Shown: positions 24,672 to 33,171, counted from the first letter of the stretch. The stretch is 64,000 nt of DNA from a virus (IMGVR_UViG_3300015214_000028:1-64000); one strand, 5' to 3'. The notes: generated by a model not told the origin, from the sequence alone. A program made the numbers and translations.

Positions 24672-25183
24672 AAACATTCCTTGTAGCAGACACGCACTTT
24701 GGTCACCAAGGTGTTTGTAGGTTTCTTAGAGAGGACGGCTCCAAGCTTCGTCCATGGGATAACTATGCAGATATGGATCGGGAGCTTGTTGCTAGATGGA
24801 ACGCTAAAGTAGGGCCTAAAGATAAGGTATATCACCTGGGCGATGTTCTTATAAACCGTAGGGCTTTTGGTGTTTTGAATGAGCTTAATGGTGATAAGGT
24901 ACTAATACGTGGTAACCATGACATCTTTAAAGACGCCGAGTATACTCCATTCTTTAGGTCTATACGTGGGTCTCATGTGTTAAATAACATGTTGTTAACT
25001 CATATACCTGTTCACCCAGACAGTATGGGCAGGTTTACAGTTAATCTTCATGGGCACTTGCACTATCGTAGTGTTATGCTAGGAGACACGCCCGACCCTA
25101 GGTACCTATGTCTATCAGTGGAGCATACTGATTATGCTCCAATAGATTTTAACGAAGTACTTTCTAGAGTAGCTCAGCGGTAG
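24668..25183 (+). CDS. calcineurin-like metallophosphoesterase
   Basis: Motifs ADTHFGHQG, GDVLINR, IRGNHD, GHLHYR. The 3' end overlaps tRNA-Asn. Confidence 0.6.
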   Translation: MKTFLVADTHFGHQGVCRFLREDGSKLRPWDNYADMDRELVARWNAKVGPKDKVYHLGDVLINRRAFGVLNELNGDKVLIRGNHDIFKDAEYTPFFRSIRGSHVLNNMLLTHIPVHPDSMGRFTVNLHGHLHYRSVMLGDTPDPRYLCLSVEHTDYAPIDFNEVLSRVAQR

Positions 25184-25237
25184 AGCAGTTGGCTGTTACC
25201 CAATTGGTCCTAGGTTCGATACCTAGCTCTAGAGCCA
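25163..25237 (+). tRNA. tRNA-Asn(GTT)
   Basis: Acceptor TCTAGAG/CTCTAGA; D arm AGCTCAGCGGTAGAGCA; anticodon loop CTGTTAC; T loop TTCGATA; encoded CCA. Confidence 0.75.
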
Positions 25238-25312
25238 GGGGGATTAGTGATAATGGGAGCACAGGGGTTTTGCATACCTTTAGTGGGAGTTCAATTCTCC
25301 CATCCTCCACCA
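25238..25312 (+). tRNA. tRNA-Ala(TGC)
   Basis: G3:U70 alanine identity pair; anticodon loop TTTGCAT; T arm GGGAG-TTCAATT-CTCCC; encoded CCA. Confidence 0.65.
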
Positions 25313-25320
25313 AGTTTTAA

Positions 25321-25395
25321 GCACGATTCGTCTATCGGTTAGGACTCAAGGTTTTCATCCTTGCAAGAGGGGTTCGACTCCCCTATCGTGTGCCA
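25321..25395 (+). tRNA. tRNA-Glu(TTC)
   Basis: Anticodon stem CAAGG/CCTTG with loop TTTTCAT; T arm AGGGG-TTCGACT-CCCCT; encoded CCA. Confidence 0.7.
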
Positions 25396-25459
25396 ATTTT
25401 AGTTTTAGGATAGATACAGCAAATTTTACTTATATGGAAGTAACCAAAACTATCCTGTC

Positions 25460-25488
25460 TTGATTTTGTTTGATTAGTGCTGTATAAT
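25460..25488 (+). promoter_or_regulatory. sigma70 promoter TTGATT-N17-TATAAT ahead of the tRNA-Gly/Ile pair
   Basis: Read directly. Confidence 0.6.
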
Positions 25489-25500
25489 GTTTATATCGGA

Positions 25501-25569
25501 TGGGGAATCGCCAAGATGGTTAAGGCATTGGGTTTTGATCCCGACAGTCGAATCCTTCTTCCCTTGCCA
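25501..25569 (+). ncRNA. tRNA-like leader or degenerate tRNA (acceptor, D arm and a TTG anticodon arm recognisable, no T arm)
   Basis: GCC-aagatggttaa-GGC D arm and TTGGG-ttttgat-CCCGA anticodon-like arm ending in TTGCCA, but the 3' part has no foldable T stem. Confidence 0.3.
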
Positions 25570-25578
25570 AAATATTTT

Positions 25579-25654
25579 GCGGATATAGCTCAATTGGTAG
25601 AGCTTCTGCCTTCCAAGCAGACTGTTGTCGGTTCGAGTCCGACTATCCGCTCCA
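25579..25654 (+). tRNA. tRNA-Gly(TCC)
   Basis: GCGGATA/TATCCGC acceptor; loop CTTCCAA; T arm GTCGG-TTCGAGT-CCGAC; encoded CCA. Confidence 0.8.
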
Positions 25655-25661
25655 ACTTTAC

Positions 25662-30825: not shown

Positions 30826-31055
30826 AATTTACTGAAATCAAAACTTCTCTTACTCTAGAAGATTCTATCACTATTGGTAAATATACAGGAACGCAAATTA
30901 AAGATATTTCAGATCCTGAATACCTGATTTTCCTAGAAAAAGCTGGACTAGTTAAATTTGATAAAGAAGTGGTAGAGTATCTAGCTGATGCGGTAGGGTA
31001 CATTGATTTAGCAGATACCACTGTAGCTTATACAGATGAAGAAATTCCGTTTTGA
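30822..31055 (+). CDS. hypothetical acidic protein (77 aa)
   Basis: Track ORF. Confidence 0.4.
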   Translation: MKFTEIKTSLTLEDSITIGKYTGTQIKDISDPEYLIFLEKAGLVKFDKEVVEYLADAVGYIDLADTTVAYTDEEIPF

Positions 31056-31080
31056 CTTTTGTTTCTGAAGCGAGTATAAT
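31052..31080 (+). promoter_or_regulatory. sigma70 promoter TTGACT-N17-TATAAT
   Basis: Read directly. Confidence 0.6.
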
Positions 31081-31107
31081 ATCTATATTCGCTTGGGGAA
31101 ACACACG

Positions 31108-31416
31108 ATGAAACAGAAACAAGATATTACTGCTATTATTTACGACAAAAAAGGTCACGTTCTCAGCATCGGCAAAAATTCTTATGTAAAAACTCACCCT
31201 CTTCAAGCTAAGTACGCTAAACAAGTAGGGGAAGAGAATAAAGTTTTTCTCCATGCTGAGCTTGCAGCAATTATTCGCTGTAAAGATCTCAGTAAAGCGG
31301 ATAAAATTCAAATCTTCCGGGTGGGCCGAAATGGCAAGTTTGCAACGGCGAAGCCGTGCAAGATTTGCCAACTGGCCATTCGTGAAGCTGGTATTAAAAA
31401 AATTGAACACTCTTAA
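31108..31416 (+). CDS. dCMP/cytidine deaminase (zinc-binding)
   Basis: HAELAAI ... PCKICQLAI (H(A/C)E ... PCxxC) motifs. Confidence 0.65.
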   Translation: MKQKQDITAIIYDKKGHVLSIGKNSYVKTHPLQAKYAKQVGEENKVFLHAELAAIIRCKDLSKADKIQIFRVGRNGKFATAKPCKICQLAIREAGIKKIEHS

Positions 31417-31491
31417 TGCAGGGTGGAAAAAAGGTTAATTCGCAAGTCTCATAAGCTTGAGTTCCGGGTTCGAGTCCCGGCCCTGCTACCA
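31417..31491 (+). tRNA. tRNA-Met(CAT), elongator type
   Basis: Anticodon stem CAAGT/GCTTG with loop CTCATAA; T arm CCGGG-TTCGAGT-CCCGG; encoded CCA. The 1:72 pair looks like T:T. Confidence 0.6.
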
Positions 31492-31509
31492 CACAACTAA
31501 AGGAACACT

Positions 31510-32880
31510 ATGTTTGCCAAAACAGCTAATTATACTACTACTCTAAATGGAATGCCTGCTTTCAAGACAACCAATAGTGCTTGTCTTGATCTATTTTATA
31601 ATTTCGGAGCCATGAGGGGGCAAAATATTCTGCCCCTATTTCGCTCTGCTTATAAAGAAAACCCCTATCTTGCTCTCCGAATCCTGCTATGGGGTCGTGA
31701 TGCACGAGGGGGAGCAGGAGAGCGTCAGCTATTTCGCAGCGTTCTTTCAAACCTAAGCGATCTAGAGGTTACCGTTCTACTTCCCAAAATTCCAGAAGTA
31801 GGGCGTTGGGACGACCTTCTTTCAGTTCCTGTCAATACTAGTGCGCGCACTATTGCACTAGAAATGATTAAAAACGTTATTGAAGAAGGTAACGGTCTAG
31901 CTGCTAAGTGGATGCCTCGCAAGGGTGCTGTAGCTATTGAACTTCGTAAGGCTTGGAAAATGACCGCCAAGCAATACCGTAGGTTTCTAGTAACTGCAAC
32001 AAATGTTGTAGAAACGCAAATGTGTTCTGGCAACTGGAATGAGATTGAGTTTAGTAAAGTTCCTTCCGTTGCTATGTCAAAATACAATGCGGCTTTTCAG
32101 CGACATAATCCAGTAGGATTTCAAAAGTATAAAGACGCTCTAACTGCTGGGACTACTAAAGTTAATGCTAATGCGGTATTCCCATACCAGATTCTAGAAA
32201 TTGAAGATGCTCAGCTACGTACTGCTATGTGGGATGCACAGCCAAACTACATGGTAGCAAATAGCGCAGTGTTGCCAGTTGTAGACCGTAGTGGTTCCAT
32301 GACAATGGCTAAACTGCAGGGCAGCAAGCTTAGTGCAGAAGATGTTGCAGTATCTCTAGGGCTATATTGTGCTACAAAAAACCTTGGGCCTTTTAAAGAT
32401 CTAGTGGTTTCTTTTGCTGATAAGCCTGAGATTCAGCTTCTGCAAGGTACTCTAAACGACAAACTTTACCAGATTAAGCACGATCTGGATGTTGGGTACA
32501 GTACTAATCTAATGGCTACGCTAGACCTTATCCTTACGGCTTCCAAAGCTATGGGAGTTAGTCGAGAAGATATGCCAAAAGTTTTGCTCTTTCTGTCGGA
32601 CATGCAGTTTAATGATGCTCTCAGTAAAGAGTGGAATGAATCCCTTCTAGGTACTATTAGGAGCAAATATACGGCTGCAGGGTATGACATGCCCGCAATC
32701 GTATTTTGGAATCTAGTGTCTTATGGTAATGTTCCAGCCCTAGGTACTGAAGCAGGCGTAATGATGGTTTCAGGATTTTCGCCAAGCATTCTTAAAGCAG
32801 TGCTTAGCGCTAATTTTGATCGCATTACTCCAGAAAGACTAATGCTAGATGTTGTATTGAGTCCTCGATACGATTTCTAA
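31510..32880 (+). CDS. rsr: Ro60/Rsr-like protein (TROVE domain + C-terminal vWA domain)
   Basis: 456 aa. The C-terminal VVDRSGSMT is a MIDAS DxSxS motif. N-terminal composition and size match the TROVE module. Embedded in the tRNA cluster. Confidence 0.55.
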   Translation: MFAKTANYTTTLNGMPAFKTTNSACLDLFYNFGAMRGQNILPLFRSAYKENPYLALRILLWGRDARGGAGERQLFRSVLSNLSDLEVTVLLPKIPEVGRWDDLLSVPVNTSARTIALEMIKNVIEEGNGLAAKWMPRKGAVAIELRKAWKMTAKQYRRFLVTATNVVETQMCSGNWNEIEFSKVPSVAMSKYNAAFQRHNPVGFQKYKDALTAGTTKVNANAVFPYQILEIEDAQLRTAMWDAQPNYMVANSAVLPVVDRSGSMTMAKLQGSKLSAEDVAVSLGLYCATKNLGPFKDLVVSFADKPEIQLLQGTLNDKLYQIKHDLDVGYSTNLMATLDLILTASKAMGVSREDMPKVLLFLSDMQFNDALSKEWNESLLGTIRSKYTAAGYDMPAIVFWNLVSYGNVPALGTEAGVMMVSGFSPSILKAVLSANFDRITPERLMLDVVLSPRYDF

Positions 32881-32887
32881 CCGGATA

Positions 32888-32952
32888 AGGGTGCTAACAG
32901 CAAATCTTATAAAATCTTACTTTAAATAGGAAAATAATGCACCCTGTTAAAA
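32888..32952 (+). repeat. copy 1 of a covarying hairpin element (AGGGTGC-TAACAGCAA ... GCACCCT-GTTAAAA) overlapping the start codon of 32937..33125
   Basis: Read directly; the related copies are at 33630-33747. Confidence 0.6.
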
Positions 32953-33125
32953 CTGGTATTTTAAATGTTAAAAGTCATTCTAGGATTGGCCCTGGTGGTT
33001 GGAAGTGTAATTGTTGTGGTCCACCACCAAAATATCGTAAACTTTTTGCACGAAAGCATAAAAAGCGCATCTATCGCTTTTTAGATAAATTTTACGGCTA
33101 TAGCTCAGTGGAATTAGAGCAGTAG
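32937..33125 (+). CDS. small basic Cys-rich protein (62 aa; GGWKCNCCGPPP)
   Basis: Track ORF; its 3' end overlaps tRNA-Arg. Confidence 0.35.
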   Translation: MHPVKTGILNVKSHSRIGPGGWKCNCCGPPPKYRKLFARKHKKRIYRFLDKFYGYSSVELEQ

Positions 33126-33171
33126 GCTTCTACCCTATTGGTCGGAGGTTCGAATCCTTCTAGCCGTGCCA
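33094..33171 (+). tRNA. tRNA-Arg(TCT)
   Basis: ACGGCTA/TAGCCGT acceptor; D arm GCTCAGTGGAATTAGAGC; loop CTTCTAC; T arm GGAGG-TTCGAAT-CCTTC; encoded CCA. Coordinates accurate to about 1 nt. Confidence 0.7.

Follow-up and report, generated by a model that had tools for sequence, protein, structure and literature searches.

A tRNA gene island of a probable T5-like siphovirus with a five-arm tRNA-Ile(UAU) and an arm-less tRNA-Leu(UAG)

The tRNA genes of the island

The viral sequence IMGVR_UViG_3300015214_000028:1-64000 (hereafter the window, that is, the whole stretch of 64,000 nucleotides that was analysed) contains an island of transfer RNA (tRNA) genes, among them a tRNA-Ile(UAU) with a fifth arm and a tRNA-Leu(UAG) with a short variable loop in place of the long variable arm. 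Eighteen genes of tRNA type, all on the + strand and mixed with small open reading frames (ORFs), occupy positions 25163-33256. The original prediction, made from the sequence alone, had described a cluster of about 17 such genes; the cluster is real, but its true total is 18, tRNA-Asp(GUC) having been missed just past the point at which the cluster had been taken to end. ARAGORN reports 15 tRNAs on the + strand over 25163-33256, and the Rfam model RF00005 (gathering score 29 bits) finds 14 loci at or above its gathering score, with 41.7-73.7 bits, including the tRNAs with the anticodons UAU (56.5 bits) and UAG (59.6 bits) and tRNA-Trp (52.0 bits). Outside this set are the tRNAs for Tyr and Asp, which ARAGORN alone recovers, a remnant of tRNA-Gln (27.7 bits) and the split tRNA-Leu(UAA). 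Neither program returned canonical structures with other boundaries at the loci that had been singled out as anomalous, and CCA is encoded by every tRNA of the island. The genes are as follows:

25163-25237, + strand: tRNA-Asn(GUU) (ARAGORN; Rfam 66.6 bits)
25238-25312, + strand: tRNA-Ala(UGC), G3.U70 present (ARAGORN, Rfam)
25321-25395, + strand: tRNA-Glu(UUC) (ARAGORN, Rfam)
25501-25569, + strand: truncated tRNA-Gln(UUG) (Rfam 27.7 bits; alignment to 20 related tRNA-Gln)
25579-25654, + strand: tRNA-Gly(UCC) (ARAGORN; Rfam 73.7 bits)
25662-25736, + strand: tRNA-Ile(GAU), U1xU72 (ARAGORN)
26076-26167, + strand: tRNA-Ser(GCU), class II (ARAGORN, Rfam)
27427-27505, + strand: tRNA-Pro(UGG), unusual D arm (ARAGORN)
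27513-27605, + strand: tRNA-Tyr(GUA), class II (ARAGORN)
27811-27887, + strand: tRNA-Leu(UAG), arm-less (ARAGORN; Rfam 59.6 bits)
28219-28292, + strand: tRNA-Thr(UGU) (ARAGORN, Rfam; compensatory T-stem change versus L009)
28301-28377, + strand: tRNA-Trp(CCA), G73 (ARAGORN; Rfam 52.0 bits)
29672-29706, + strand: tRNA-Leu(UAA) exon 1, ends at U34
30359-30408, + strand: tRNA-Leu(UAA) exon 2, begins at A35
30415-30511, + strand: tRNA-Ser(UGA), class II (ARAGORN, Rfam)
30517-30617, + strand: five-arm tRNA-Ile(UAU), A73, encoded CCA (Rfam 56.5 bits over 30517-30614; family covariation)
31417-31491, + strand: probable initiator-type tRNA-Met(CAU) (ARAGORN)
33094-33171, + strand: tRNA-Arg(UCU) (ARAGORN, Rfam)
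33177-33256, + strand: tRNA-Asp(GUC) (ARAGORN)

The phage and its relatives

PHROG scans of the large ORFs recovered a gene set of T5 type, comprising an A1 DNA-transfer protein, a fused protease and major head protein and a large terminase, together with a DnaB-like helicase, a PolA-type polymerase, an SbcC-like protein, a ribonucleotide reductase and a long tail fibre; an A2-like gene is also present in the window. The A1 homologue is about 36% identical to A1 of cultured T5-like phages, and megablast of the island against GenBank phages returned no near nucleotide relative, the matches being limited to single tRNAs. A phage tRNA island as such is an ordinary kind of object: T5-like phages (Demerecviridae) and other large virulent phages likewise carry many tRNA genes on one strand, in an early or middle region, among small ORFs and homing endonucleases, and in T5-like clusters, as in the window, the tRNAs are mostly those for the A/U-ending codons that the phage favours. 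The likeness extends to the flanking genes (T5-type A1, A2, D13-like and ligase). Unlike the T5-like clusters, however, the island of the window possesses a group I-like intron in tRNA-Leu(UAA), a DUF2828 gene (TROVE in relatives) and a PTH2-like gene.

The same phage is present in five metagenome assemblies (L001-L005), which are 99.99-100% identical to the window and hence hold no variation to use. A relative with about 91-92% nucleotide identity, L009, covers the stretch from tRNA-Thr to tRNA-Asp, and 80 related tRNA islands were fetched with the methyltransferase-like ORF at 26797-27363 as the marker; the AAA ATPase, employed as a marker for related loci in IMG/VR, found none. Between the window and L009 the coding and intergenic DNA differs by 8-9%, whereas only 14 of 582 positions differ in the seven unsplit tRNAs that both possess, from which it follows that the island tRNAs are under purifying selection. 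Paired compensatory changes between the two are found in the T stems of tRNA-Thr and tRNA-Arg and in tRNA-Leu(UAA)'s anticodon stem. We consider it probable that the tRNA genes at 25163-33256 form an island in the genome of a distant T5-like siphovirus, and that most of its odd tRNAs are conserved phage tRNA designs and not products of decay. The five-arm and the arm-less tRNAs appear, from their distribution, to be large, conserved and phage-restricted architectures, and in searches of the open-access literature neither a phage tRNA-Ile bearing an additional arm nor a phage tRNA-Leu lacking its variable arm was found described.

The five-arm tRNA-Ile(UAU)

The tRNA with the anticodon UAU (30551-30553) has a variable region of 29 nucleotides (nt) at 30561-30589, as had been predicted. 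Default-mode ARAGORN misses the gene because of the long arm, and the folds that its relaxed and mitochondrial modes produced were forced and implausible, so that the Rfam match and the comparative structure were preferred. Within the variable region lies a complete hairpin with a stem of five base pairs (bp):

30568-30584, + strand: extra arm of the UAU tRNA, 5-bp stem CUGGU/ACCAG, 7-nt loop UAGAUAA (30573-30579)

Outside the ARAGORN calls, the 80 related islands were searched with a purpose-made scan for a T arm plus acceptor stem, which recovered the same long UAU tRNA in many phages. Cultured carriers found by BLAST are the Pectobacterium phage PhiM1 (Autographiviridae), the Escherichia phages ESCO41, ETEP102 and PCEc3 and the Klebsiella phage Opt-79 (Drexlerviridae and similar), the Klebsiella phage KP13-26, the Xanthomonas phage Xoo-sp13, and the Vibrio phages Pylo, River4 and WD615. 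In the small coliphages the five-arm gene adjoins a tRNA-Arg(UCU) gene, and these two are the only tRNAs that the phage carries. The five-arm tRNA constitutes an annotation gap of default ARAGORN: it is unannotated in six of the eight cultured-phage records inspected (ESCO41, Opt-79, KP13-26, Xoo-sp13, Pylo and River4), and some GenBank records call the long gene a plain tRNA-Ile.

An alignment of 18 independent members, cultured phages included, reveals a common plan: a 7-bp acceptor stem, a D arm, an anticodon arm with invariant CUUAUA in its loop, a linker with invariant AGC, a 5-bp stem closed by a 7-nt YAGAUAA loop, a linker of 5-6 nt, the T arm and A73. All five pairs of the extra stem show double-sided changes and 100% of the cells are paired, and the structure as a whole is 94.9% paired, whereas shuffles reach 67% and slid controls 41-50%. 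A pattern scan of IMG/VR in which the loop was left unspecified yielded at least 79 unique cores, and 79 of the 79 listed have TAGATAA or CAGATAA, on 29 different stems. Unique full-length sequences number at least 98, with A73 and CCA in all 98 listed. By comparison, the strict pattern was matched 10 times in the genomes of 185,579 bacterial and archaeal species and was absent from 5,426 complete E. coli genomes, and the family would accordingly be called phage-specific, or at least seems essentially confined to phages. The gene at 30517-30617 has all the features that define the family, i.e. the CUUAUA loop, the AGC linker, the covarying stem, YAGAUAA, the 3' linker and A73-CCA. It differs from its L009 counterpart at a single position in 101 nt, against a background divergence of 8-9%; with this conservation, a large family and full covariation in the extra arm, it is evidently not a pseudogene.

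The loop of the extra arm is itself informative. In the 390 unique tRNAs taken from the related islands, the only anticodon loops of the form YNGAUAA are those of tRNA-Ile(GAU), all 15 of which have it. The extra arm is consequently a hairpin of anticodon-arm size that bears the cognate GAU loop with U33 replaced by A. The isoleucyl-tRNA synthetase (IleRS) of E. coli is inefficient in charging a tRNA-Ile whose anticodon is UAU, and on E. coli ribosomes a UAU tRNA cannot tell AUA from AUG (PMC3575796); Ile identity resides in the anticodon, t6A37 and A73, plus minor elements (PMC9976931). Because a UAU anticodon is charged poorly and Ile identity sits in these positions, the loop of the extra hairpin would present GAUAA determinants to a host IleRS that is poor at a bare UAU anticodon, and the true anticodon loop, CUUAUAM, would then read AUA on the ribosome. 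We advance tentatively, as a possible and not as a probable account, a two-faced tRNA in which a GAU-mimicking hairpin serves an IleRS that cannot use UAU while the first hairpin reads AUA, and which may even switch between two cloverleaves.

The second cloverleaf comes from an alternative pairing of the invariant G10-C11-U12 with the invariant AGC of the linker, which is possible in 18 of the 18 aligned members and forms three to four of its four pairs in the 98 sequences. In the ordinary D stem G10 is always mismatched, and four of four pairs are reached in only three of 98 sequences. The alternative pairing sets the GAU hairpin at the canonical place of an anticodon arm, 1 nt after the preceding stem and with a variable loop of 5-6 nt before the T arm. 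The two folds differ by about 1-2 kcal/mol in most of the 18 sequences and by up to about 4 kcal/mol in PhiM1.

Several points weigh against the proposed supply of GAUAA determinants to IleRS. The alternative cloverleaf is of approximately equal energy, and neither thermodynamics nor covariation chooses between the folds, so that even the secondary structure is provisional. Charging by IleRS, like that of the arm-less tRNA by leucyl-tRNA synthetase (LeuRS), is a prediction from identity elements. Nor is it obvious that an arm located in the variable region could reach the anticodon-binding domain of IleRS. Finally, the extra loop has A33 and not U33, and its conservation could instead serve a modification enzyme, a nuclease or a phage protein.

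A different explanation would be that the odd shapes mainly evade host defences or enzymes that target tRNAs, the GAUAA loop being a decoy or a tag bound by a protein. The additional arm, the missing arm and the changed T loops would then render the phage tRNAs unfavourable substrates of anticodon nucleases and comparable effectors. Changes in their loops are reported to let phage tRNAs escape anticodon nucleases, and the tRNAs of T5 to counter tRNA-cleaving systems (PMC10264068 and PMC12409363). Several non-standard designs recur in the islands, such as extra hairpins on tRNAs for Lys, Cys, Pro and Met and a T loop with A54..U58, which, like the confinement of the five-arm family essentially to phages, would be in line with evasion. 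Yet evasion leaves unaccounted for why the invariant loop is the cognate Ile anticodon loop and why the arm has the exact dimensions of an anticodon arm, and no system targeting tRNA-Ile or tRNA-Leu variable arms was identified in this analysis. We regard evasion as a doubtful principal cause, although it is compatible with the supply of GAUAA determinants to IleRS and not exclusive of it.

The two-faced tRNA has partial counterparts in known systems. AUA is likewise read by a UAU tRNA of unmodified type, without TilS or lysidine, in Mycoplasma mobile and in lactic acid bacteria (PMC3575796). There the adaptation lies in IleRS itself (Arg865 in M. mobile) and the tRNA has the usual four arms of class I, whereas the phage tRNA has an added arm, which would substitute for the adaptation of IleRS. 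Mimicry of an anticodon arm is also known: the operator of the E. coli thrS mRNA is an anticodon-arm mimic that binds the synthetase. A yeast synthetase mRNA with an anticodon mimic is cited in PMC9976931, and this mRNA and the thrS operator resemble the phage arm in having an anticodon-arm-sized hairpin with a cognate loop outside the normal anticodon position. The known mimics sit in mRNAs and regulate the translation of the synthetase, in contrast to the phage mimic, which sits inside a tRNA and whose binding by IleRS is putative.

If the account of a two-faced tRNA is true, the five-arm molecule would be a natural tRNA with a synthetase recognition element that is physically apart from the decoding anticodon. 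The small coliphages that carry the five-arm tRNA and tRNA-Arg(UCU) only, and whose host IleRS is known for its rejection of UAU anticodons, would provide an E. coli setting for charging that is independent of the decoding anticodon. The question of how the five-arm tRNA is charged bears on AUA decoding without lysidine, on the design of anticodon-independent orthogonal tRNAs, and on the contest between phage and host over tRNAs.

The arm-less tRNA-Leu(UAG)

The tRNA at 27811-27887 had been noted for a variable arm too short for a bacterial tRNA-Leu, and ARAGORN indeed gives it a 5-nt variable loop (AAGCU). Class II is defined by a variable arm of more than 10 nt, a length that the spliced tRNA-Leu(UAA) exceeds and the UAG tRNA does not reach. 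Nevertheless, it has a Leu-type D arm (UG-GYGRAAUUGGYAG), G1.U72 and A73. Related phages possess either an 83-nt class II tRNA-Leu(UAG) (L046, L054) or a 77-nt arm-less form, and since the D arm and the anticodon loop are common to the orthologs with and without the arm, the short form is a product of arm loss. Arm-less Leu tRNAs with the anticodons UAG, UAA and CAG are found in cultured Gordonia and Acinetobacter phages and in the gut phage Phass-1, and one with the anticodon CAA in the metagenomic phage L059; the anticodons of all arm-less examples (UAG, UAA, CAG, CAA) are Leu anticodons. A scan of IMG/VR found at least 100 unique arm-less sequences of 74-75 nt, and A73 is present in 100 of the 100 listed. 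By its identity elements (A73 and the Leu-type D arm) and its orthology to class II tRNA-Leu(UAG), the UAG tRNA is evidently a tRNA-Leu and not a pseudogene.

A tRNA-Leu from which the arm has been deleted is still a substrate of Aquifex LeuRS, with mainly a lower affinity (PMC2377443), and bacterial LeuRS should still charge the arm-less UAG tRNA. This engineered molecule and the class I-shaped tRNA-Leu of animal mitochondria agree with the phage tRNA in their Leu anticodon, a variable loop of 4-5 nt, A73 and the core tertiary elements. The arm-less phage tRNA-Leu, however, is a natural gene for the bacterial cytoplasm, in which every cellular tRNA-Leu is class II. The family would imply that Leu decoding in the bacterial cytoplasm can do without class II architecture.

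Codon use and decoding

Codon counts place CUA as the commonest Leu codon (34% of Leu codons), with UUA at 26%, and AGA accounts for 29% of Arg codons; the tRNA set supplies readers for the heavily used codons CUA, UUA, AGA, GAA and CAA. The anticodons of the two unusual tRNAs raise the possibility of recoding, in which CUA would be read by the UAG tRNA as an amino acid other than Leu, after the fashion of yeast mitochondria, or the UAU tRNA would insert Leu or Ser at AUA in the manner proposed for nev-tRNAs and allo-tRNAs. Proteins of the window were therefore aligned to homologues in related loci and the residues tallied by codon. CUA sites align with Leu in 57% (51-66% for the other Leu codons) and AUA sites with Ile in 48% (48% for AUU and 46% for AUC), rates that are indistinguishable from those of the synonymous codons; a point on the other side is that these rates pool many non-independent homologue alignments. 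Because CUA reads as Leu and AUA as Ile in this comparison, decoding is canonical and there is no recoding, and the non-canonical decoding roles envisaged in the original prediction find no support. A further assignment of isotypes by the nearest neighbour in pairwise identity was discarded, as it was biased towards long sequences and placed Leu on top for every query. AUA and AGA are the two rarest sense codons of E. coli, and the small coliphages in which the five-arm tRNA and tRNA-Arg(UCU) stand alone fit a plain supply of AUA readers.

The known tRNAs that would suggest recoding differ in structure from those of the island. Mitochondrial tRNA-Thr(UAG) and tRNA-Ala(UAG) exist (PMC7609411), but the phage UAG tRNA, which has a Leu-type D arm, is unlike them in its 7-nt anticodon loop and its lack of G3.U70. 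The nematode nev-tRNA-Ile(UAU), one of a set of class II tRNAs whose anticodons belong neither to Leu nor to Ser, shares with the phage UAU tRNA the anticodon, a long variable-region arm and A73 (likewise the discriminator of tRNA-Leu), and it is leucylated in vitro (PMC3333845, PMC4300185). In contrast to the tRNA-Leu body of nev-tRNAs, however, the phage tRNA has a D arm that is not of Leu type, a 5-bp stem in its extra arm, the invariant YAGAUAA loop and long linkers; a nev-like nature was rejected on account of the D region UAGCUUAAUUGGUUAAAGA, which is not Leu-type, and of the AUA sites, whose alignment with Ile is as frequent as that of AUU and AUC. Allo-tRNAs (Mukai et al. 2017, PMC5389517) come from bacteria and phages in metagenomes, possess long variable arms and often have UAU anticodons, in all of which they agree with the phage tRNA. 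They are nonetheless built with acceptor/T stems of 8/4 or 9/3, a Sec-like D arm and G73 or U73 (Ser identity), whereas the tRNA of the window has 7/5 stems and A73; the covariation-supported 7-bp acceptor and 5-bp T stems, A73 in 98 of the 98 listed members and the codon-to-residue comparison led us to reject this assignment as well. Taken together, we hold recoding by either tRNA to be very improbable.

Acceptor mismatches, the Gln remnant and other unusual shapes

The remaining anomalies that had been predicted are likewise present, and their interpretation differs from gene to gene. A mismatch at 1:72, predicted as T:T, is found as U1xU72 in tRNA-Ile(GAU) (25662-25736) and in the CAU tRNA (31417-31491). 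In the latter it is the hallmark expected of an initiator, and the CAU tRNA seems to be of initiator type. Among the CAU tRNAs of related islands, 16 of 53 unique sequences have a 1x72 mismatch (C:A, C:U, U:U, A:A or U:C); the listed ones with C1xA72, C1xU72 or A1xA72 share an anticodon stem, ..AGU/GCU.., which is also that of the window tRNA. This group has A11 in common too, and the window tRNA possesses A11:U24 in a D stem in which G10 A11 A12 pair with U23 U24 C25 (ARAGORN). In L009 the mismatch is kept as U1xC72. What counts against an initiator is that the window tRNA is without three consecutive G:C pairs (29-31/39-41), its stem CAAGU/GCUUG having G30:C40 only; the reduced G:C pattern is common to the whole group of phage CAU tRNAs with a 1x72 mismatch.

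The U1xU72 of tRNA-Ile(GAU) stands alone among 19 related Ile tRNAs and, since the relatives have A1:U72 or G1.U72, represents a single change at position 1. tRNA-Trp has the two predicted acceptor mismatches, C2xU71 and U3xU70, both unchanged in L009 (0 of 77 positions differ), whereas the acceptor stem is perfect in 16 of 18 related Trp tRNAs. The perfect conservation between the window and L009 might argue weakly for function; on the other hand, two mismatches lie near the acceptor end, the identity of window and L009 makes the comparison uninformative, and the tRNA may be impaired. The mismatches of Trp and of Ile(GAU) are peculiar to this lineage.

The piece at 25501-25569, predicted to be a tRNA without a T arm, aligns with 20 related tRNA-Gln(UUG) and differs from them by an 8-nt deletion, which takes away the variable loop's end together with the 5' strand of the T stem. 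It is otherwise intact, with U1xU72, G73 and CCA kept; U1xU72 is normal for tRNA-Gln in these phages (13 of 20). The remnant lies 12 nt downstream of the -10 element of a promoter-like site (P1, below) and is most likely a deletion pseudogene that would still be transcribed as a leader. An assembly artefact was rejected as the source of the deletion, L003 being identical across the site and L001 differing at 1 in 10,500 aligned bases; a pseudo T arm of 3 bp, proposed by ARAGORN in its relaxed and mitochondrial modes, was set aside in favour of Rfam and the comparative structure.

It had also been suggested that several of these genes are pseudo-tRNAs, i.e. decaying copies that no longer work in translation. 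This fits the Gln piece, which is without one strand of the T stem and below the Rfam threshold, and is possible for Trp and Ile(GAU) with the mismatches described above; in addition, Tyr and Asp remain under the Rfam gathering score. For the UAU and UAG tRNAs, however, the suggestion does not hold. The UAU tRNA (1 of 101) and tRNA-Trp (0 of 77) differ far less between the window and L009 than the background of 8-9%, the extra arm covaries across 18 to at least 98 members, and the arm-less tRNA-Leu, which is represented by at least 100 unique sequences with A73 in all those listed, reads the commonest Leu codon. The odd shapes of Pro and Asp are conserved over several lineages with compensatory changes. 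Decay is thus unlikely as a general explanation of the odd members, and we prefer to see most of them as conserved phage designs.

The unusual D arm of tRNA-Pro is conserved in L047, L054, L055 and L059, together with compensatory changes in the anticodon stem. tRNA-Asp has a long D loop, a variable loop of 8-9 nt and the T loop AUCGUUA (A54..U58), a shape that is kept in L009, L013 and L068. A T loop with A54/U58 (AUCGUUA or AUCGAAA) recurs in tRNAs for Asp, Ile and Tyr (window; L032, L021, L006, L039, L041, L045) and replaces U54...A58, so that the reverse-Hoogsteen pair is swapped and the m5U54 site is lost. In tRNA-Tyr(GUA) the connector is a single nucleotide, the D stem has 5 bp and a loop of 12 nt, a spacer at position 26 is missing and the T stem contains a GxA mismatch; the gene is below the RF00005 threshold and scores only on the Rfam tRNA-Sec model, with 38.8 bits (gathering score 47).

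In other islands, class I isotypes carry extra hairpins: GAAA-capped hairpins in the variable arm are found in tRNA-Lys (CUU and UUU; 86-88 nt) and tRNA-Cys (82 nt), and further examples are a tRNA-Pro of 87 nt and a tRNA-Met of 81 nt. A tRNA-Thr-like gene in another island has an insertion of about 40 nt between the D arm and the anticodon arm. These examples of extra hairpins and insertions are located at L006 12534-12715 and 13109-13190, L045 15343-15429, L041 10532-10612 and L021 13744-13859.

The split tRNA-Leu(UAA)

The intron predicted in tRNA-Leu(UAA) is present:

29707-30358, + strand: intron of 652 nt between U34 and A35, group I-like, with an HNH endonuclease ORF at 29797-30273

An uninterrupted allele of tRNA-Leu(UAA) with a compensatory 31:39 change lies at L009 1529-1613, and because L009 carries this intronless allele the junction is fixed at U34/A35, the insertion point of group I introns of the cyanobacterial and plastid type in tRNA-Leu(UAA). 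The Rfam Intron_gpI model matches the intron weakly, with 21.9 and 19.8 bits (gathering score 50), which is due to the HNH ORF splitting the core. L021 has a group I intron in its own tRNA-Leu(UAA) (8186-8413), which is without an ORF, reaches 59.6 bits on Intron_gpI and has an apparently slightly different junction.

Promoters and maturation

Four promoter-like sites, each with 10-11 of 12 matches to the consensus, are distributed over the island:

25460-25488, + strand: P1, TTGATT-17-TATAAT, 10/12 matches, directly upstream of the Gln remnant, Gly and Ile(GAU)
27373-27401, + strand: P2, promoter-like site upstream of Pro and Tyr
29613-29641, + strand: P3, promoter-like site, 11/12 matches, upstream of Leu(UAA), Ser(UGA) and Ile(UAU)
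31052-31080, + strand: P4, promoter-like site upstream of the deaminase-like ORF and the CAU tRNA

The tRNAs would be transcribed from at least four promoters of sigma-70 type, and because every one of them encodes its own CCA, trimming of the ends by host RNases alone should suffice for maturation. The GATAAT in the variable arm of the UAU tRNA was considered as an internal -10 element and rejected, as the stem covaries as RNA and strong promoters are present elsewhere in the island.

Other genes and elements of the islands

The ORFs among the tRNAs encode a metallophosphoesterase, a C5-methyltransferase-like protein, an AAA ATPase, a CDA-fold deaminase, a DUF2828/DUF7788 protein and a weakly PTH2-like protein. 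Three features, two of them ORFs, are listed here:

26797-27363, + strand: C5-methyltransferase-like ORF, 188 amino acids
28500-28600, + strand: non-coding, conserved element (about 95 nt) immediately upstream of the gene for the AAA ATPase
31510-32880, + strand: DUF2828/DUF7788 ORF with a faint VWA_2 (vWA) match

The 188-amino-acid ORF resembles the N-terminal half of a C5 cytosine methyltransferase and is 70-80% identical over thousands of phage contigs, in which it lies inside tRNA islands; the proteins neighbouring it are about 40% identical. In relatives, a Pfam TROVE gene takes the place of the DUF2828 gene within the tRNA island (L010 7021-8364; L013 4157-5443), which raises the question of a partner RNA resembling Y RNA or tRNA. 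The Rfam YrlA model gives a sub-threshold match only, which spans Gly and Ile. Genes for a permuted, two-piece transfer-messenger RNA (tmRNA), with tags such as ANDAFFGEVRLAA and ANDEAFLLAA, occur in related T5-like islands (L010 9468-9870; L013 10436-10929; L021 from 8836 onward; several IMG/VR loci); none was found in the window.

The non-coding element has counterparts at about 355-455 in L009, 2015-2107 in L021, 396-492 in L112 and 8934-8994 in L122. It consists of two hairpins, RYCC-ACCUUA-GGRY and CCNG-UAUAAAGUAAG-CNGG, plus an invariant GAAAUUUCACUG block; it matches no Rfam family, and compensatory change is seen in seven of the predicted pairs. The weakly PTH2-like ORF (peptidyl-tRNA hydrolase) at 33272-33625 directly follows tRNA-Asp. 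Likewise adjacent to a tRNA gene, the deaminase-like ORF of CDA fold (31108-31416, 102 amino acids) lies directly before the putative initiator tRNA, and its nucleotide identity to L009 is 97.4%, compared to 91-92% for its neighbours.

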